This document shows positions 3,122-57,220 of a stretch of DNA of 64,000 bases, one piece after another. Made by a program: the position numbers and the translations under genes. Source of the DNA: Anaerolineales bacterium (GTDB taxonomy: Bacteria; Chloroflexota; Anaerolineae; Anaerolineales; UBA11579); the NCBI GenBank assembly GCA_016932165.1, contig JAFGDK010000009.1:5437-69436 (forward strand), in the 5' to 3' direction. How positions within the stretch are numbered: the stretch's first letter is position 1; each line of letters begins with the position of its first letter. Below the pieces are notes generated by a model. The model worked only from the letters and a program-made list of their open reading frames with translations, did not search any database and had not been told where the DNA came from.

Positions 3122-4462
3122 TTAATTGTAGTATTGGATTGATTTGGGATTTGGCTTCGATCCTTCCCAGTTTTCAACAAAATAACTTTCGCAGGCTGTA
3201 TCGATTAAGTCGATTGCCAGTACGGGTTCACGGTCTTCATATTCACATAAGGCTTTCAGTATTTTCAGCAGGTCGCCCGGATGGACTGCCTGAAAGTCTC
3301 GCCCCACATCATGGTAGTAGGTTTTAACCAGATAGTTGTAGATTTCCTCATCAAATTCAAGGTCAAACAGCTGGCAATTCAATTCAAAAATCTTGCGGTA
3401 ATTCTCCTCGGAGGGGGAATCGACCTTGACCTTGATTTGAATGCGGCGGAAAAAAGCGTCTTCAGCCAGATCGTAGGGATTCAGGTTGGTGGCAAAGACG
3501 ATCAACTGCCGGAAAGGGACGACTACCGTTTGCCCGGTTTTAAGCCGAAGGTAATCGACTTGATCGTCAAGGGGAACGATCCATCGATTAAGCATATCCA
3601 AAGGACGCGCCTGCTGGCGGCCAAAATCATCAATCAAGAACATGCCCCCATTGGCTTTGATGTGTAACGGGGCTTCGTAAATCTTGGATATCGGATCAAA
3701 CCGCAGGTCAAGCTCAGACAATTTTAGTTCGCCCCCCACCACGACAGATGGCCGCCGGAAGAGACCAAATCGGGGATCGACTTCACCGTAGATCTTTGTG
3801 TGCTGTTTGGTGACTTCAATCTGTTGGTGCACCAACCGGTCATGGATTTGAATGATCTGCCCGCCCGCGGTGATTGCATACGGCAGCCAGATCGGTTCAA
3901 TATCTGAGATCAACTCGGCCATTTTTTTGGCGATGGTTGTTTTTCCGTTGCCGGAAGGGCCATAAATGAACAATGAGGCTGCAGTATTCACCGCCGGACC
4001 AATTTTGCGGTGAAAGTCCTCTGGGAGTACCATGTCTTGTAAGGATTCAATCACTTTATCGGGCTGTACGCCCCGGTTGTTAATCGATTGTAAATCGATA
4101 ATCTCATTGTAAAGTTGAACGGGTACAGGGGCAGGTCCGATATACAGGCTGCGCTCCATCGCCGCCCGAGCGCGCCTCTCCCCATTCTCTGTAAGGCTGT
4201 AAAGGTAACCAAGGATCCCCATTCCGGAATTTCCGGATTGGACCCTGATGACCTTGTCATCGGTCAGCTGTTTTATCAGTTCTTCAATTGCCATTGGCAC
4301 TTTGATAACGTCGATAATCCGGCGAACAGTCAACAGTCCCTCGGAGTAGAACAAACGCAGCATGATGTCGATCAGCAGGTTCTGCGGGATACCCAATGCG
4401 CTGAGATTTGGGGGTTTTTCCAAGAGCGTTTTGAGTCTTTCAAGCTGGGGTGATGAGATCAT
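3122..4462 (-). CDS. AAA-type ATPase with N-terminal helical/winged-helix-like region; function unknown
   Basis: Walker A (GPSGNGKTT) and Walker B-like (MFLIDDFGR) motifs. I prefer the ATG at 4462, preceded by AGGAAATAAA, over the TTG at 4510 used by the ORF track. Confidence 0.6.
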   Translation of the reverse strand: MISSPQLERLKTLLEKPPNLSALGIPQNLLIDIMLRLFYSEGLLTVRRIIDVIKVPMAIEELIKQLTDDKVIRVQSGNSGMGILGYLYSLTENGERRARAAMERSLYIGPAPVPVQLYNEIIDLQSINNRGVQPDKVIESLQDMVLPEDFHRKIGPAVNTAASLFIYGPSGNGKTTIAKKMAELISDIEPIWLPYAITAGGQIIQIHDRLVHQQIEVTKQHTKIYGEVDPRFGLFRRPSVVVGGELKLSELDLRFDPISKIYEAPLHIKANGGMFLIDDFGRQQARPLDMLNRWIVPLDDQVDYLRLKTGQTVVVPFRQLIVFATNLNPYDLAEDAFFRRIQIKVKVDSPSEENYRKIFELNCQLFDLEFDEEIYNYLVKTYYHDVGRDFQAVHPGDLLKILKALCEYEDREPVLAIDLIDTACESYFVENWEGSKPNPKSIQYYN

Positions 4463-4974
4463 TTTATTTCCTGTCCCTTGTTTATTTTTTTGGATCATGT
4501 CCCAGATCAAATCTGGCTTGGGAGTATGGCTGCTATGTACTTATGCTTCTCTAAAATGCGACTGGGACTGGTAAACATTCCGCTTGGACATTTTATCATA
4601 TCAATGTCGTCAAACGTTATCATAGTGTTGCAGTTGTCTTCTAGTAGTGTGTTATCCCTTACGCTTTTAGATAGGAGGAAATTAGTTCTAACCAAAGTCG
4701 CCACAGGGTTTGAGGAAGGTGAAATTTCCGATCAGGTAGCAAGATGGTTATAAAGTTCAATTCAACCAAAGGATGTTTTGCGCACAAATCGAAAAATCAA
4801 AGATACTGCCTTTGTACAGGTGAGCTGGGGCCGTTTTGAGCTTTGAACGCGAGTTAAGTGACATATGGTGGCAGCTCAACTCCACCTTAATGCAAAACAC
4901 TGGCTGCGGAGAGGAGTGTAATCGGCTTGTATGAAGGCAAACGCCCACCTTTGGTTGTGTTCTGTGTCCGCTGG

Positions 4975-50520: not shown

Positions 50521-50812
50521 AAGATAACACACCCCAAACTTAATCATTGGGGAAATAAAACTCACTGAGGTGATTTCCAGTGAGTTTTTTTATATTCAAG
50601 CTTGAAAAGCAGAGCCTAAATACCCTGGTAGGGATGCCAAGTTTCGAAAATACGGCAAAAGGTTACAAAAGGTTACAAAAGGTTACACATTTTAAATTTT
50701 TGTTTACAGTTTCAAGCGGGTAGACAAACGGCAACCTGGCTTTCTCAAAGTGAGGCATTGCGTATTGGGATTGGAAAAGCGAAGGAATTATTGGCCAGGA
50801 TAATCATACCCC
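50521..50812. repeat. dispersed intergenic repeat, copy B (partner at 36858..37133)
   Basis: Hairpin CCCCAA-9nt-TTGGGG (50532..50552), hairpin CTCACTG-AGGTGATTTC-CAGTGAG plus T7 (50561..50591), tandem GGTTACAAAA array (50651..50688), and conserved distal blocks as in copy A. Confidence 0.8.
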
Positions 50813-50931: not shown

Positions 50932-51837
50932 TTAGTTGTTGCCGTAGCATTGCTCGTCGACCAGGCTGCCGCCGGGGTCGTAGAGGTGGGCGCAGTCGCC
51001 GGCGTTGGACCACAGGGATTCGTCCCGCCCGAAGGAGAAGCCGCAGCTCTCGGGGTGGACCTCGTTGGTGTAGACCCGGCAGGTCTGGCCGGGGGCAAGC
51101 TCAAATGCCGGGAAGATGAAATCCTGGTGGTAGCCGGCGGAGAGGGTCCAGCCGTTGAGCTGCACCGGGTCGGGGCTGGCGTTGCGGATCTGGGCATATT
51201 CATCGCTTTCCGGGTCGTTCTGGCCGTTATAGAAGATTTGGTCGATGACCACGGCAGGGGCATCTGGCTGCTGGAAGTGGGGCAGGGCCCAGATGCCGGC
51301 CAGGCGGGTGCGGGCATCTTCCTGGGCGGCGAGGAAGGTATCGGCGCAGGCCACGTCTGGGGGGAAGGTGACGAGATGGGCATAGCCGTTATGGATCAAC
51401 TCGTAATTGACGAAGACTCCCTGCTGGTTGAGCACATAGCGCAGCAGACGGTCGTAGCGGTCGGTGTCGGAGACATCCCGCACCAGGGTGAGCTGGCCGC
51501 TCCCCAGCAGGATGCGGTTGGCGGCGCTGGCTTCCTGGTAATACGGATCCTCGCGCTCGGGGGTATCGACTCCAATATAGCGGACGCGCTGCACCTGCCC
51601 GTCGATGCGGACATCGATGGTATCCCCGTCGATCACCGCCACCAGTTCTGCGGTCTGGCGCTGGGTGTTCTGGGGGATGCAGTTGAAAGTTGTGGGCGGC
51701 GGCTGGGTGGGAGGGACCGGCGCTTTGGTGGGGACCGGCCCGGCGCTGACGCAGGCCAGGGCGGCGAGGAGCAGGGCGGCAAGGGCGAGGGTGAGTTTGG
51801 GTGTGGTCATGGGGAGAATTATAAGCGAGAACCCCAT
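50932..51837 (-). CDS. secreted thermonuclease (SNase-like) fused to a lamin-tail (LTD) domain; lipoprotein signal
   Basis: Signal/lipobox (LAALACVSAG), SNase motifs (VIDGDTIDV...RVRYIGVDTPE), and a C-terminal LTD-like segment (EYAQIRNASPDPVQLNGWTL). Confidence 0.8.
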   Translation of the reverse strand: MGFSLIILPMTTPKLTLALAALLLAALACVSAGPVPTKAPVPPTQPPPTTFNCIPQNTQRQTAELVAVIDGDTIDVRIDGQVQRVRYIGVDTPEREDPYYQEASAANRILLGSGQLTLVRDVSDTDRYDRLLRYVLNQQGVFVNYELIHNGYAHLVTFPPDVACADTFLAAQEDARTRLAGIWALPHFQQPDAPAVVIDQIFYNGQNDPESDEYAQIRNASPDPVQLNGWTLSAGYHQDFIFPAFELAPGQTCRVYTNEVHPESCGFSFGRDESLWSNAGDCAHLYDPGGSLVDEQCYGNN

Positions 51838-52237
51838 CCCGGGCTGATACCCGTAGCCTGTTTGACAAATTTTTTATCCTATACGAGGAGATGACCGATG
51901 TCGGTACTCAAAACCTTTGAGATGTAAAACAGACCCTTAAGCGGGGCAGGGGGTTGCGGAACCGCCTGCAAATATGGTATCGGTAAATTATTGGCGGTTT
52001 GCCCTGGCTTTTTGGCCACTCATGCTAAATTCTTTTGATGATTGTTTGATGAGAAGATAGGAGATAAGAAATTGAGTGTTGAATTCGCTTGTAGGGGGTA
52101 ACCTTACCCTCTACAACCCCTTGCCGGGGATTAGATCCGCTGGACCCCGTATGCCGTGCGGAGTGATGGCACATGCTTTAGTCCCCAGGCTTTGTGGGGG
52201 TTGACCGCAATGGTGCGATAGGTTGTAGATGGTTCAT

Positions 52238-52756
52238 CTAGCTGTCTTCTATCGTTTTTGGGGTCTCTAAAGGTTCTCCATCGTAACGGGCTTCTTCTAG
52301 CAGAAATTGCTTTAGCATTTGAGGTGAATATTCCTGCGGATTCTTTTTCATCATGTACTTAACCAGATTTTCATAGGCTGACCAACTATATGGATCATAT
52401 TCCCGAGCTGCGGCAACATATTCTTTTGATACCAACCAGTATCGCACAAACCAGTATTCTTGCAGGTCGTAGGCTAATTGACGGTCGATTGCTTTGCGTT
52501 TTACCAATAATGTAATTCTGGCAAAGTGGTCTAGAACATCCGAAAGTTCATGATTATATGGGTTACCCTCTAATAGTTTTTTTGCTGCAATCTGGCGGGT
52601 TTTAACCATCTCAGGAGAATAGAACTGGTCTTCAAGATGCAAGGCGGTTTCAGTTTTGAGTGCCAGCCGTGAACTGCGGATCTCAATCCATAACCCGATG
52701 ATGGCAAATAGCGAGGTGGCCACCCCGATTAATGAGAGTATTGTTGGCAGGTCCAT
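52238..52756 (-). CDS. membrane-anchored hypothetical protein (single N-terminal TM helix plus helical domain; possibly DUF4760-like)
   Basis: 172 aa with an N-terminal hydrophobic helix (ILSLIGVATSLFAIIGLWI). AT-rich compared with its surroundings. Confidence 0.55.
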   Translation of the reverse strand: MDLPTILSLIGVATSLFAIIGLWIEIRSSRLALKTETALHLEDQFYSPEMVKTRQIAAKKLLEGNPYNHELSDVLDHFARITLLVKRKAIDRQLAYDLQEYWFVRYWLVSKEYVAAAREYDPYSWSAYENLVKYMMKKNPQEYSPQMLKQFLLEEARYDGEPLETPKTIEDS

Positions 52757-52888
52757 CGACTGTTTCCTCCTGCGATTGATTATAACCTCATCGCGGTTAG
52801 AATTATCCCTTTCTGGCCGGTCTATACATGAAAAAGGGGAGGACGGTAGTTAAAGCCTTGCCGGACAAACCCCCTCCTGGCCTGCGGC

Positions 52889-52925
52889 CTGGCGTCCTCC
52901 CCCTTGAAAAAGGGGAGGACGCCAG
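52889..52925. repeat. perfect 14-bp-stem hairpin, with a third copy of one arm at 52830..52845
   Basis: CTGGCGTCCTCCCC-9nt-GGGGAGGACGCCAG. The 16-mer GAAAAAGGGGAGGACG occurs at 52830 and 52906. Confidence 0.7.
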
Positions 52926-52995
52926 GCTGTGGTTTGCTAGGGCGCAGCTGCCGGGATGGGGTACAGAAATACTATTGAAAGATCAATGTGATGCA

Positions 52996-53214
52996 TTATC
53001 TTTGTGGTGTATCAATCATGATTTTTCCAACGCCACCGCATAATTTACATATTATTTTCCCACTTCCCTGGCAGGAGTGACACGCCACTTTTTCTGGTTC
53101 ATTCATATCACGCCAGGAGTAACCTCTGCGCTGAATGATGCCGTTTCCATTGCAGATAGGACAATCGTTTACCCTTCGCTCATTACATCCGGGGCATCTC
53201 TGAACCATTGCCAT
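52996..53214 (-). CDS. 72-aa DnaJ-type (CR-type) zinc-finger mini-protein
   Basis: Four CxxC units, three of them canonical CxxCxGxG (CPICNGNG, CHSCQGSG, CKLCGGVG). AGGAGG lies 5 nt upstream. Lies 15 nt after the HNH gene. Confidence 0.6.
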   Translation of the reverse strand: MAMVQRCPGCNERRVNDCPICNGNGIIQRRGYSWRDMNEPEKVACHSCQGSGKIICKLCGGVGKIMIDTPQR

Positions 53215-53229
53215 ACGAACCTCCTGTGG

Positions 53230-54129
53230 TTAGTTGCCTGCCGCCTGATACCGCTCGAAACGCCAGGCTAAAGCATCCCGATCAGGCCAATCAATTTTCC
53301 TGCTGGGGAGAATGATTTTTGAACCGTGAAGTTCCTGAAGGCCGTGTTTTAAAATTGGCCCATCCACTTCTTCTAGGATATCCTCTCTGACTTCAATAAT
53401 GAAATCTGGAGAAACACCGAGGATGAAGTTATCAAAGGCGGCGTGGTGTAGTTTGCATAATGCCATCCCGTTATCCACGGTCGGACGGCTGATTTCCTCT
53501 GTGTCCGGGATGATATGAGAAGCATCAAGAAGCTCGCGGTGTTTGAGCCTACAAAAAGCGCATTGGTCATGATATGCCTGGAGGACTCTGTCCCGGAAAC
53601 TTCTTTGGTGAATTCTCTGCCGAACTGCAGCAGTAATGTAGCCTCGTTTTTGTTCAGCAACTCTGTCGGCTTTTGGTTTCGCACCAATCTCTACGGTATC
53701 CAAATCATCTACTTGAACTCTGAAGGTCAAAGATGATGGATCATCTCCAACAATATAAACAGGCCAGGTGGCTAAGTATTTACTAGGGATTGTACGGAAG
53801 AAGTAAACCAACGGTAATCTCAGACGCAAAACTTCCCGAAGTCCAATATTATCCCGGTGACTCGGATCGGTCCCCCGGTATCGATAAGTAAGCAGGCCTT
53901 TATCATCAAAACCATCATCGTAGGGACTTCCCGGGATGGTTTTGATCGAGAGTGGTAAATCCATCACTTTTGGTTTGAAAATTCCCTGTGGATTTACCAG
54001 CGGAATTCTATGTCCCTCAAATTCAAAGCCTTGCTGTAATAATTCTAGCGGCAATACATCCCCATGGATTTGCGTTTGTTCTGCAAGCCATTTGAAGGCT
54101 GCGAGTCGGATGGCAAGGTCTTTAGTCAT
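53230..54129 (-). CDS. HNH endonuclease (HNH_2-type) with N-terminal putative DNA-reader domain; restriction-endonuclease-like
   Basis: C-terminal CAFC...ASHIIP...NGMALCKLHHAAFD. The N-terminal about 150 aa is conserved-looking (GLLTYRYRGTDPSHRDNIGLR, PLVYFF...WPVYIV). Confidence 0.75.
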   Translation of the reverse strand: MTKDLAIRLAAFKWLAEQTQIHGDVLPLELLQQGFEFEGHRIPLVNPQGIFKPKVMDLPLSIKTIPGSPYDDGFDDKGLLTYRYRGTDPSHRDNIGLREVLRLRLPLVYFFRTIPSKYLATWPVYIVGDDPSSLTFRVQVDDLDTVEIGAKPKADRVAEQKRGYITAAVRQRIHQRSFRDRVLQAYHDQCAFCRLKHRELLDASHIIPDTEEISRPTVDNGMALCKLHHAAFDNFILGVSPDFIIEVREDILEEVDGPILKHGLQELHGSKIILPSRKIDWPDRDALAWRFERYQAAGN

Positions 54130-54143
54130 TGAATGACTTCTGA

Positions 54144-54944
54144 TTACTCGGTTAGTTTAGTCCTTATAACATTATAGGTTTGTTTATTTATTGAGATGAT
54201 AACATTTTCATCTGAAATTTGGTAACTTACCTTGGCATGATGGAGTTTCATGTGGCATGTTGGGCAAACTATTATGATGTTGTCGGAGCAATATGAGCCT
54301 GGATACAATTCATGTAGTTCTCGAACATGATGTGCTTCGATATAACGCTCCCCATTTTTCTTCTTGAATCCATACGATCCGCAAATTTGACAGGTGTAGT
54401 TCATTAATTGCTTCAGATAGTTAGTGATCACTCCTGGCCTAGCAACTTGCTCTGAAATACTATGTCGCCTGTGGGGGACAGTATTACGATATTTTTCGTT
54501 GAAGTATCTAATCTTTTCTTTCAGTTCCTCAATTGGCAAGGATAAATCAGATGAATATTGGGCCTTTGATTCATTTACAGAATTATATAGGTCTTCAGGT
54601 TCAAGATATTGAAAGTTGTTGTGATAATGGGAGACTGGAATTCCTTGACCTGTTCCATGAATTCGTAGAATGTCATTGTGAATTGATCCTACCCATCTGT
54701 TTCCTTTAGGAACCAAGTTTTCATCAGAAAAAATGGCTTTTACTTCACTATAAGGCATTATGTATGAATCTTCTTCATCATTTGAACCTATTAGAATTAA
54801 ACAGAAGGCTTCACCAAAATCTGAAATGTAAGTATTAAGCTTTCGTAGATTGAAGGAAAACCAATAATCGGTTGAGAAATCTGCTTTTCTGACGTAATGA
54901 AACTTTTCAAGTTCTTCTCTATTTTCAACTATGTAATTTCCCAT
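54144..54944 (-). CDS. McrA-like HNH endonuclease with N-terminal domain of unknown function
   Basis: C-terminal CQICG...YIEAHHV...IIVCPTCHMKLHH (HNH/His-Me finger with two CxxC pairs). Strongly AT-rich codon usage. Confidence 0.75.
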   Translation of the reverse strand: MGNYIVENREELEKFHYVRKADFSTDYWFSFNLRKLNTYISDFGEAFCLILIGSNDEEDSYIMPYSEVKAIFSDENLVPKGNRWVGSIHNDILRIHGTGQGIPVSHYHNNFQYLEPEDLYNSVNESKAQYSSDLSLPIEELKEKIRYFNEKYRNTVPHRRHSISEQVARPGVITNYLKQLMNYTCQICGSYGFKKKNGERYIEAHHVRELHELYPGSYCSDNIIIVCPTCHMKLHHAKVSYQISDENVIISINKQTYNVIRTKLTE

Positions 54945-55069
54945 AGAAAAACCCCGATTTCATAAAGAAATAGTTTCCATTACAAGTATTATACAGATGT
55001 TTATTCCTCTCACCCAAAATATTGTATAATCCTTCACACACTCAATCACACACATAGCGAGGTTATCCT

Positions 55070-57220
55070 GTGACAAACCCCAAGATCCTGGCAGAATTCG
55101 AGTATCCCCTCCAACCGGTGGACAAAGGCTATACCAACCGCACGCTGTACATCAACGTAACAGACAATACGATCGCCTCCAAACCCGTCTCGCAAGAGAT
55201 GAAGGATATCTTCATCGGCGGGCGCGGCTTTGGGCTGAAGCTGCTGTGGGAGGCGGTCAGCGGGGAGACCAAATGGGACTCGCCCGAAAACGAGATCGTG
55301 ATCTCCTCCGGCCCGATCGGCGGGATCACCCAATACCCGGGCAGCGGCAAGTCGATTGTTGTCTCGGTCTCCCCGACCACCAACATCGTGGTGGACAGCA
55401 ACGTGGGCGGCTATTACGGGCCGTACCTCAAGTTCGCCGGCTGGGACGCCATCGAGATCCAGGGGATCGCCGACAAAGAGGTGATCATTTACGTGGACGG
55501 CGAGGAAGGCAAGGTCCAGATCGTCGAGGCGGAGACGGATGAGGTCAATACCCATAAGCTGACCGAAATTTTGCTGGAGATGTTCGCCGACCCGCTGAAG
55601 CCCAACCTGGTCAGCACGGTCACCGCCGGCAGCGGGGCAGATAACACCCTGCTGGGCTGTCTCAACGTCAGCTATTACGACCTGCCCCGCAGGCAGCTGA
55701 AGGTCAAGCAGGCCGGGCGCGGCGGGACGGGCACTGTCTTCCGCAAGAAGAACCTCAAGGCGCTGGTGGTCAAGATCCCCAAGATGAGCGGCAAGCTCAA
55801 CAACGCCGCCGACCAGCAGCTGATCAACGAGACCGGCAAACGGATGAATAAAGAGGTCAACGAGAACGACCCGGTGCAGAACAGCATGGCCACCAAGGGC
55901 ACCCCGGTGCTGGTCGAGATCATGGATAAATTCGACCTGCTGCCGACCCACAACTTCAAGTTCGGCGGCCACCCGGAGGCGCACAAGATCGATTCCACCG
56001 TCTGGGAGAGCCTGTTCGACCTCTCGGCGCCGGACGGCTGCTGGTACGGCTGTACCCTGGCCTGCGCCCACGGTTACCAGGATCTGGAGCTGCAAACCGG
56101 CCCCTACCAGGGAGACAAGGTGTTTGTGGATGGGCCGGAATATGAGACTGTCGGCGGGGTGGGCTCCAACCTGGGGATCTTTAACCCGCTGCAGATCCTG
56201 GAGTTGAACTTCTACTGCGATACCTACGGCATCGACGTGATCTCCTATGGCACGCTGACCGCCTTTTTGATGGAGTGCTGGGAGAAAGGGATCCTCAATG
56301 CGGAGCGCACCGGCGGGATTGTACTGGAGTGGGGCAATTTTGAGGCGGCCGCCGAGGTGCTGCACGGGATGGGCGCGGGAGAAGGTTTCGGCAAGACCGC
56401 CGGGCTGGGCATCCGCCGGATGAAGAAGATCTTTGCCGAGGAATACGGCACCGATGCGCAGCTGCTGGAAGATATCGGGATGGAAGCCAAAGGGATGGAA
56501 TATTCTGAGTATATGACCAAGGAATCGCTGGCCATGCAGGGCGGCTACGGCCTGGCCAACAAGGGCGCCCAGCACGATGAGGCCTGGCTGATCTTCATGG
56601 ACCAGGTGCTTAAGCTGATCCCCACCTTTGAGGACAAAGCTGAAGCGCTGCATTACTTCCCGATGTTCCGCACCTGGTTCGGGCTCAACGGCCTGTGCAA
56701 GCTGCCCTGGAACGATGTGGAGCCGACCGACAACCGCACCAGGTACAGCGGCATTGAAGCTGCCAAAGTGCCGGAACACGTGCAGAACTACGTCAATCTG
56801 TTCGTGGGGGTGACCGGGCGTACGGATGTGAAGCGCGGCGAGGACCTGATCGAGATGTCGGAAGCGGTCTACAACTTCCAGCGGGTCTTCAACGTGCGCA
56901 TGGGCTACGGCGACCGGGATCACGACCGCATCCCCTACCGCTCGGTTGGCCCGGTCACGGTGGAAGAATATGAGTCCCGCCAGGAGCGCTACGACACCCA
57001 GCTCAAAGAGCTGCTGGATTACGACCCGCAGGGCAGGACCACCGAGGAGAAGATGGCCGTGCTGCGCCAGTACCGTGAGGATCAGTACCAAAAGCTGTGC
57101 GATGCGGTCTACAAGCGGCGTGGTTGGACGGAGAACGGCATCCCCACCGTGGAGACGCTCAAACGCCTGAGGATCGACTTCCCCGATGTGGTCGAGGTGG
57201 TCGAGAAGGCGATCAATTAG
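55070..57220 (+). CDS. aldehyde:ferredoxin oxidoreductase family (tungstopterin enzyme)
   Basis: AOR N-terminal domain (YTNRTLYINV...IGGRGFGLKLLWE) and Cys-rich cluster region (GCWYGCTLAC). 716 aa, GTG start with GAGG upstream. Confidence 0.9.
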   Translation: MTNPKILAEFEYPLQPVDKGYTNRTLYINVTDNTIASKPVSQEMKDIFIGGRGFGLKLLWEAVSGETKWDSPENEIVISSGPIGGITQYPGSGKSIVVSVSPTTNIVVDSNVGGYYGPYLKFAGWDAIEIQGIADKEVIIYVDGEEGKVQIVEAETDEVNTHKLTEILLEMFADPLKPNLVSTVTAGSGADNTLLGCLNVSYYDLPRRQLKVKQAGRGGTGTVFRKKNLKALVVKIPKMSGKLNNAADQQLINETGKRMNKEVNENDPVQNSMATKGTPVLVEIMDKFDLLPTHNFKFGGHPEAHKIDSTVWESLFDLSAPDGCWYGCTLACAHGYQDLELQTGPYQGDKVFVDGPEYETVGGVGSNLGIFNPLQILELNFYCDTYGIDVISYGTLTAFLMECWEKGILNAERTGGIVLEWGNFEAAAEVLHGMGAGEGFGKTAGLGIRRMKKIFAEEYGTDAQLLEDIGMEAKGMEYSEYMTKESLAMQGGYGLANKGAQHDEAWLIFMDQVLKLIPTFEDKAEALHYFPMFRTWFGLNGLCKLPWNDVEPTDNRTRYSGIEAAKVPEHVQNYVNLFVGVTGRTDVKRGEDLIEMSEAVYNFQRVFNVRMGYGDRDHDRIPYRSVGPVTVEEYESRQERYDTQLKELLDYDPQGRTTEEKMAVLRQYREDQYQKLCDAVYKRRGWTENGIPTVETLKRLRIDFPDVVEVVEKAIN

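Follow-up and report, generated by a model that had tools for sequence, protein, structure and literature searches.

Restriction enzymes that join an N-terminal reader or specificity domain to a C-terminal HNH nuclease include EcoKMcrA, TagI, ScoA3IV, and VcaM4I (PMC6212794, PMC6765204, PMC7897488, PMC7145662). TagI, ScoA3IV (Sco5333), TbiR51I, and MsiJI are SRA-HNH enzymes (PMC6212794, PMC6765204), while SprMcrA and EcoWI are SBD-HNH enzymes that depend on phosphorothioate (PMC7461809). PUA/SRA-HNH enzymes are modification dependent and are seldom found next to methyltransferases (PMC6765204). Type IV restriction enzymes serve as reagents for mapping DNA modifications and shape the arms race between DNA-modifying phages and their hosts. 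The subject here is a group of four genes, P1 to P4, at 52238-54944 of a 64,000-nucleotide stretch (the window) from an Anaerolineales bacterium of the Chloroflexota. The window is C74:5437-69436 in an assembly of 3.13 Mb and 128 contigs that is 86% complete. P1 and P2 are predicted HNH nucleases, P3 is a zinc-finger mini-protein, and P4 is a DUF4760 protein. The group is probably a small mosaic defence islet of independent cassettes that entered a variable site upstream of AOR by horizontal transfer and carries two self-sufficient, type IV-like nucleases. The islet itself is ordinary; what stands out is the N-terminal domain of P1, which has no known relative, and the P2 family, in which this work turned up no member with a characterised biochemistry.

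Calling of open reading frames (ORFs) in the window gives four genes across 52238-54944, all on the minus strand, with gaps of 14 nucleotides (nt) between P1 and P2, 15 nt between P2 and P3, and 239 nt between P3 and P4. The islet has a GC content of 42.9% against 52.9% for the genome, and only 0.32% of 5630 genome windows of the same length are as GC-poor (z = -3.1). GC at third codon positions (GC3) is 0.31 for P1, 0.42 for P2, 0.41 for P3, and 0.43 for P4. All four values lie below the first percentile (0.445) of the genome's long ORFs, which have a median of 0.63, and the flanking SNase-LTD and AOR genes have values of 0.84 and 0.85. GC is lowest in P1, at 35% compared with 46% in P2, and this 11-point gap fits separate origins for the two nuclease genes. 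A Pfam scan of the four genes finds no methyltransferase, integrase, or transposase domain. The original prediction for this DNA, made from the sequence alone, had described minus-strand genes at these positions with the first three packed 14 and 15 nt apart, AT-richness judged by eye to be most marked at 54144..54944, a composition expected to prove atypical on calculation, and no methyltransferase, integrase, or transposase; all of this description stands.

P1 (54144..54944, minus strand) is a predicted nuclease of 266 amino acids. Its N-terminal domain spans about residues 1-115 and is joined by a helical linker to an HNH domain at the C-terminus (Pfam HNH, PF01844, E 1.8e-6). The best PDB match to the HNH domain by sequence is EcoKMcrA (6ghc, E 3.5e-8; family profile 1.7e-9), in agreement with the earlier description of P1 as McrA-like, and the same search also matches TagI (6ghs). 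The AlphaFold model of P1 has a predicted local distance difference test score (pLDDT) of 86.6, and with this model Foldseek aligns the HNH part alone with EcoKMcrA (probability 1.00), TagI, and ScoMcrA. The PADLOC model mREase_IV likewise matches only the C-terminal 90 residues (E 1.7e-8). For residues 1-115 the model shows a confidently predicted alpha/beta domain (pLDDT about 90), to which full-model Foldseek against PDB and BFVD, a PDB profile search, and a Pfam scan of the isolated domain give no significant match; the only hint, at E~1, is to PRC-barrel proteins.

The resemblance of P1 to EcoKMcrA extends from the HNH domain, the best PDB match by both sequence and fold, to size (266 amino acids versus 287 in the 6ghc chain) and to the order of the parts, with an N-terminal specificity domain followed by a C-terminal HNH domain. 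However, the NEco domain of EcoKMcrA is unmatched by P1, and the 69-71 columns aligned by Foldseek span no more than the HNH region already matched by sequence. P1 would act in the manner of EcoKMcrA, but the absence of the NEco domain places it outside that family. The P1 family is small, with 52 proteins in a word-index search of 5.8 billion, from hosts in Chloroflexota, Acidobacteriota, Armatimonadota, Nitrospirota, and Bacteroidota. C185, C188, H206, N222, C227, and C230 are invariant in the family, the four cysteines being the zinc-binding ones, and H231 and H235 are kept in at least 90% of members. Invariant residues of the N-terminal domain include H16, Y17, W28, and F29. This domain could be a new modification reader, and it probably senses a mark or sequence context other than that sensed by P2.

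P2 (53230..54129, minus strand) is a predicted nuclease of 299 amino acids that has a putative SRA-like domain at the N-terminus (about residues 1-141) and an HNH_2 domain at the C-terminus (PF13391, E 7e-10). The PADLOC HNH model PDLC04132 matches it with E 1e-22 over model positions 143-266 of 286. More than 3371 relatives were found, of which the best 120 are full length with 59-84% identity; P2 had been called an HNH_2-type protein with a conserved N-terminal domain, and both points are confirmed. Identity remains at about 60% across phyla, and sources include Chloroflexota, Rhodothermia, Syntrophobacteraceae, and others, with many members annotated as "putative restriction endonuclease." The family is a very large and strongly conserved reader-HNH family with thousands of members. 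In an alignment of 26 of them, C190, C193, H205, N220, C225, H228, H229, and D233 are invariant; the catalytic motifs of P1 and P2 are both intact.

The model of P2 has a pLDDT of 61 overall and of 65-89 in the N-terminal domain. Foldseek matches the modelled N-terminal domain to complexes of the SUVH5 SRA domain with DNA containing 5-methylcytosine (5mC), with probability 0.94-0.99, E 0.03-0.13, and template modelling scores, TM(target), of 0.39-0.49, and more weakly to the ScoMcrA entries that contain the SRA domain of ScoMcrA. By profile, the HNH part aligns weakly with VcaM4I (EVE-HNH) and TagI. P2 appears to share the two-domain plan of the SRA-HNH enzymes, with a predicted SRA-like fold, a Cys/His zinc site that aligns with that of TagI, a similar size (299 amino acids versus 311 in the TagI chain), and no partner methyltransferase. 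In contrast to those enzymes, its N-terminal domain is not recognised by Pfam SAD_SRA, its likeness to TagI is marginal and confined to the HNH domain (profile E 0.62), and its family, set beside the approximately 160 reported homologues of ScoA3IV, has many more members and is better conserved. SAD_SRA proteins gave a single sub-threshold match among 301 genomes of the class. The HNH module of P2 is also nearer to the SBD-HNH (SprMcrA-type) model, NCBIfam PT-DNA_restrict (NF045808), and P2 has the HNH_2 module and C-terminal extension of those phosphorothioate-dependent enzymes. However, the match covers the C-terminal half of the model alone (positions 157-280 of 284) and leaves the sulfur-binding N-terminal half unmatched, with a score of 67 bits that is far under the 180-bit cut-off. 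P2 consequently has a nuclease module of that type, but its N-terminal domain is not sulfur-binding. Membership of P2 in the SRA-HNH type IV enzymes is plausible but not secure, since the fold evidence is moderate and the sequence models give no match.

Both nucleases look modification dependent, or type IV-like, because they combine a putative reader with an HNH domain and have no adjacent methylase, and because no C5 cytosine methyltransferase is detected by PF00145 in the organism's own assembly, although at 86% completeness one may have been missed. The original prediction had compared them with modification-dependent enzymes on the basis of reader-plus-HNH architecture without a neighbouring methylase, and for both P1 and P2 this comparison is supported. 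In a mechanism modelled on TagI, ScoA3IV, VcaM4I, and EcoKMcrA, the N-terminal reader of each nuclease would bind a modified base in incoming DNA, and the C-terminal beta-beta-alpha-metal HNH domain, which has a Cys/His zinc site and a catalytic His, would cleave in the vicinity. Host DNA would be spared by its lack of the target modification. The SRA-like reader of P2 would probably use a base-flipping pocket for 5mC or 5-hydroxymethylcytosine. P1, P2, and P3 are probably co-transcribed, as suggested by the 14- and 15-nt gaps and by a hairpin that follows P3. P1 and P2 are probably adjacent because defence genes accumulate at such sites and because two readers would widen coverage; neither nuclease would need the other.

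P2 is absent from all seven other genomes of the same genus, and the other relatives searched give remote HNH_2 matches only. The genes upstream of AOR differ among the window and the four same-genus genomes compared. In G001 they are an amylase, a GGDEF protein, a kinase-like ORF, and a DUF4760 gene, and in G003 and G005 an M3 peptidase and a histidine kinase. In G002 the site holds a stretch of 30-44% GC (L154:3200-6000) with an XRE/C-protein-like helix-turn-helix gene (L154:5464-5718, minus strand), an ORF of 134 amino acids without a Pfam match (L154:4885-5289, minus strand), and an N6/N4 DNA methylase gene split by a frameshift (L154:3891-4301 and 4288-4542, plus strand); from its gene content this stretch looks like a decayed type II restriction-modification system at the same site as the islet. 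A match between G002 and window positions 50658-50724 was discounted as evidence of synteny. In the source metagenome, the islet lies on a single Logan contig of 3413 base pairs (bp) (51741-55153, depth 55), while its flanks are represented by many contigs with 90-95% identity. The pattern fits, but does not prove, an insertion peculiar to the strain and flanked by shared genes. The Logan contigs contain no joint bypassing the islet and yield no usable RNA signal. Of the earlier claim of a horizontally acquired defence island, the atypical accessory insertion is upheld by GC content and by the absence of P2 from the seven genomes, while defence is retained as the putative function. In run X3, a hot-spring metagenome of another study, there are pieces identical to window positions 53688-54563, which include the P2-P1 junction, and 56082-56232, within AOR. 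The same strain is present in at least two sampled sites, since islet and AOR pieces are both identical.

Co-occurrence of the four genes was examined in 56 genome loci and 80 metagenome loci with P1-P4 as tblastn queries, and further by a regular-expression search for mini-ORFs with four CxxC units, Pfam tallies of neighbours, and eight contig look-ups. Twelve P1-family loci were covered, eight with full-length or nearly full-length members from a one-genome-per-species collection and four on metagenome contigs. None of the twelve has a relative of P2, P3, or P4 nearby; the neighbours are mostly housekeeping genes, and one locus lies among SIR2-like and NgoFVII-like genes. On the P2 side, the 80 metagenome loci were covered together with the closest relatives at 82%, 71%, and 69% identity; at least 600 bp of flank is available upstream in 56 loci and downstream in 59. 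No relative of P1 or P4 is found near any of the 82 P2-family genes. Across the loci collected up to that stage, the regular-expression scan found, besides P3 itself, a single P3-type mini-protein, near one of the 82. It is an ORF of 70 amino acids that lies downstream of the P2 relative with 71% identity, at a distance of 640 nt and after a 102-amino acid ORF without a Pfam match. This ORF (L155:2755-2967, and L156:1864-2076, which are one sequence in two samples) shares the P3 spacing CxxC-x7-CxxCxGxG ... CxxCxGxG-x3-CxxC, and its position may reflect chance or a weak real link. No zinc-finger gene accompanies L158 (69% identity) or L159 (82%), the nearest relatives of P2 for which the flank is long enough.

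The nearest neighbours of P2-family genes, 113 ORFs in the 82 loci, most commonly encode an HNH_2 nuclease (10/113). Next are PIN (4), followed by type I R subunit domains, NERD, and AbiEii-type AAA (3 each), and then McrBC, Fic, and RhuM; this is the signature of a defence island. No methyltransferase family is among the 25 commonest Pfam families of these neighbours. A second HNH_2 family, of about 306-315 amino acids with a different N-terminal domain, is the commonest of these neighbours and is present at L058:3655-4575, at L102:2639-3586, and at about eight other P2-family loci. The partner gene usually lies directly downstream of the P2-family gene on the same strand, at a distance of about 40 nt, and has this arrangement in seven of the nine loci of its sequence cluster. 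Its likeness to P2 is confined to the HNH module (29% identity over 135 amino acids), and it is unrelated to P1. Tandem reader-HNH nucleases are therefore a recurrent arrangement in which the partners are interchangeable. Lutz et al. (PMC6765204) studied several reader-HNH enzymes of S. coelicolor whose locus tags are close to one another (Sco5330, Sco5333), and these may be taken, by analogy, as a partial precedent for such tandems.

The original prediction had proposed that the two HNH nucleases and the zinc-finger protein, possibly with the membrane protein, could be a fixed trio or quartet making up an undescribed multi-gene system. In the strict form of that proposal, P1, P2, and P3, with or without P4, are one obligate defence system in which the zinc-finger protein is a sensor, chaperone, or regulator of a two-nuclease effector. 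The shared strand, the 14- and 15-nt gaps, and a hairpin placed only after P3 are as such a system would have them, and the 70-amino acid ORF downstream of the 71%-identical P2 relative and a match of P3 to a PADLOC candidate protein, PDC-M01B, point in the same direction. However, the homologues do not recur together in the loci covered, an outcome that the original prediction had itself named as refuting. The 12 P1-family and 82 P2-family loci are without co-occurrence apart from the one P3-type ORF, L158 and L159 are without the zinc-finger gene, and P1 and P2 differ strongly in GC content. In addition, P3 relatives occur in unrelated contexts, including after ruvA in other genomes, and a P4 homologue occupies the same site without P1-P3 in G001. 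The fixed trio was rejected on these grounds, and an obligate system is highly improbable. Close packing on one strand within an AT-rich islet is not enough to define a system, and the trio has no place in lists of candidate multi-gene defence systems. A looser arrangement, in which the tandem reader-HNH pair is a selected but non-obligate module, with the P2 family recruiting a second nuclease (P1 in this case) to block phages that switch modifications, is unlikely but less so. It draws on the HNH_2 nucleases that head the list of P2-family neighbours, on the downstream, same-strand position of most genes in the partner cluster, on the HNH module being all that the partner shares with P2, and on the window, where the layout is the same with a different partner family. 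Set against this, about 88% of P2-family loci are without such a partner, no second nuclease of these families is found at the 12 P1-family loci, and clustering in defence islands explains the adjacency without selection for pairing. The combined proposal that P2-family enzymes are preferentially two-nuclease modules, that the P1 N-terminal domain is a new sensor of modified DNA, and that P3-like proteins are occasional accessories is slightly less likely again.

The remaining explanation concerns what the nucleases recognise rather than their partnership. One or both could be sequence-specific type II-like nucleases, or solitary or homing-type HNH nucleases, with the host protected by a methyltransferase encoded elsewhere. 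PADLOC type II restriction endonuclease HNH models do match P2 (PDLC03546, E 3.8e-11) and P1 (PDLC03514, E 4e-4), phage HNH families match the HNH modules, and there are three N6/N4 methyltransferases elsewhere in the organism's own genome. The best matches, however, are to the type IV enzymes mREase_IV, EcoKMcrA, TagI, and ScoMcrA, and the N-terminal domain of P2 is predicted to have an SRA-like fold. Moreover, there is no adjacent methyltransferase here or, in general, beside family members, and the genes lie outside any intron, intein, or phage terminase region. Taken together, this makes a type II-like or selfish nuclease quite improbable. Several observations nevertheless weigh against a mosaic islet with two self-sufficient type IV-like nucleases. 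The P2 assignment to SRA has no match to Pfam SAD_SRA behind it and depends on a medium-confidence model with Foldseek E-values of 0.03-0.13, so it is of moderate strength, and for P1 the term "reader" is derived from the architecture. A C5 cytosine methyltransferase may be among the genes missing from the assembly, and PADLOC also matches the nucleases, more weakly, to type II HNH models. Functional coupling could also be read from the tight spacing, from the zinc-finger mini-protein near the 71%-identical P2 relative, and from the HNH_2 nucleases among the 113 neighbours.

P3 (52996..53214, minus strand) is a stand-alone zinc-finger mini-protein of 72 amino acids that starts 15 nt past the P2 stop and has a strong ribosome-binding site, AGGAGG. 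As the original prediction had it, the protein is of the CxxCxGxG type, with four CxxC units (CPGC, CPICNGNG, CHSCQGSG, and CKLCGGVG), three of which are CxxCxGxG. The four units and Gly-rich turns are like those of the two-zinc CR domain of DnaJ (PF00684). P3 differs from DnaJ/Hsp40 proteins in having neither a J domain nor C-terminal substrate-binding domains, and it scores 29.5 bits against DnaJ_CXXCXGXG, below the Pfam cut-off of 32.7 bits. The match of P3 to the C-terminus of PDC-M01B has an E-value of 5.5e-5. A word-based search returned P3 alone, but the idea that it is an orphan was abandoned when a full HMMER search gave 129 proteins, about 30 of which are stand-alone proteins of 61-88 amino acids in a representative library; the stand-alone relatives that were aligned have 30-51% identity to P3, which thus belongs to a small family of mini zinc-finger proteins. 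A P3-like gene of 64 amino acids directly follows ruvA at L172:1501-1695 and L173:1498-1692, in small genomes that each consist of one contig and belong to another family of the phylum; this position suggests that part of the P3 family has a housekeeping role. Proteins of 630-710 amino acids from one family of the phylum (L161-L171 and others) have a zinc-finger module that beats DnaJ on the P3-family profile (E 1e-14). P3 in the islet is rated as a hitch-hiker or minor accessory.

The spacer between P3 and P4 (52757-52995, 239 nt) contains a perfect, GC-rich 19-bp hairpin at 52887..52927 on the minus strand. The minimum free energy of the spacer is -92.3 kcal/mol, compared with -71.0 +/- 4.8 for shuffled sequences (z = -4.4), which bears out the strong structure that had been noted for a spacer of about 240 bp. 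The hairpin at 52887-52927 is not followed by a T-run, and no terminator was called there by the consensus terminator scan. The P1-P2-P3 transcript probably ends at this hairpin. The possibility that the hairpin is a widespread exact repeat was discarded: the exact stem is unique, but a hairpin element related to it recurs at scattered positions in the genome. This element, with a consensus of about ACCCCCACCTGGCCTGCGGCCTGTCCTCCCCCTTTGCAAAGGGGAGGATTATGAG, is found in the window at 52867-52927, at C81:16894-16943, at C117:11293-11313, and at C108:226-273, 524-569, and 4338-4361. The spacer hairpin is a longer-stemmed variant of this element.

P4 (52238..52756, minus strand) is a DUF4760 protein of 172 amino acids with its own AGGAGG and a TATAAT-like box upstream. 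It matches the DUF4760 model (PF15956) with 46.1 bits, above the cut-off of 25 bits, over model positions 4-139 of 141, and it has no match in PADLOC, PHROG, or NCBIfam. The single N-terminal transmembrane helix attributed to it earlier agrees with its hydrophobic N-terminus, LPTILSLIGVATSLFAIIGLWI. The family is patchy in distribution, being present in 10 of 41 related genomes. In G001, of the same genus and without P1-P3, a homologue with 57% identity adjoins AOR as the last minus-strand gene before it (L151:8410-8886, minus strand). This occurrence led to the rejection of P4 as a functional partner in a nuclease cassette, and P4 is rated as tied to the site and not to the nucleases. A membrane protein of 214 amino acids beside a P2 relative is unrelated to P4. 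The AOR genes of the window and G001 are 86% identical, with GC3 values of 0.85 and 0.86, while the DUF4760 pair at the shared position is 57% identical and differs in GC3 (0.43 for P4, 0.79 for the G001 homologue). Either allele replacement by a foreign copy or separate insertions at a single hot spot would account for the mismatch. G001 also has a GC-rich ORF of about 190 amino acids with the P-loop GTSSSGKST (L151:8891-9469, minus strand) that ends 4 nt before the DUF4760 homologue, in the place of P1-P3, and the pair has the look of an operon beside AOR. The P-loop ORF presumably resembles the chloramphenicol-phosphotransferase-like kinases.

On the left, the islet is bordered by non-coding DNA (51838..52237) between P4 and the SNase-LTD gene, in which a GC and ORF scan shows a drop in GC from 0.66 to 0.45 and no ORF of at least 50 amino acids. 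The SNase-LTD gene (50932-51837, minus strand) adjoins the islet but is GC-rich and native in composition. Its product starts with a hydrophobic, signal-like N-terminal stretch and has staphylococcal-nuclease and lamin-tail domains. No homologue of the gene appears in the roughly 6-10 kb upstream of AOR that were examined in each of the four same-genus genomes. The right border is a divergent, AT-rich intergenic region of 125 bp between P1 and the AOR gene (54945..55069). TATAAT-like boxes are present in this region, which on sequence grounds probably contains the P1 promoter. GC climbs from 0.33 to 0.60 across it, and homology with the AOR loci of the same genus begins at 55021.

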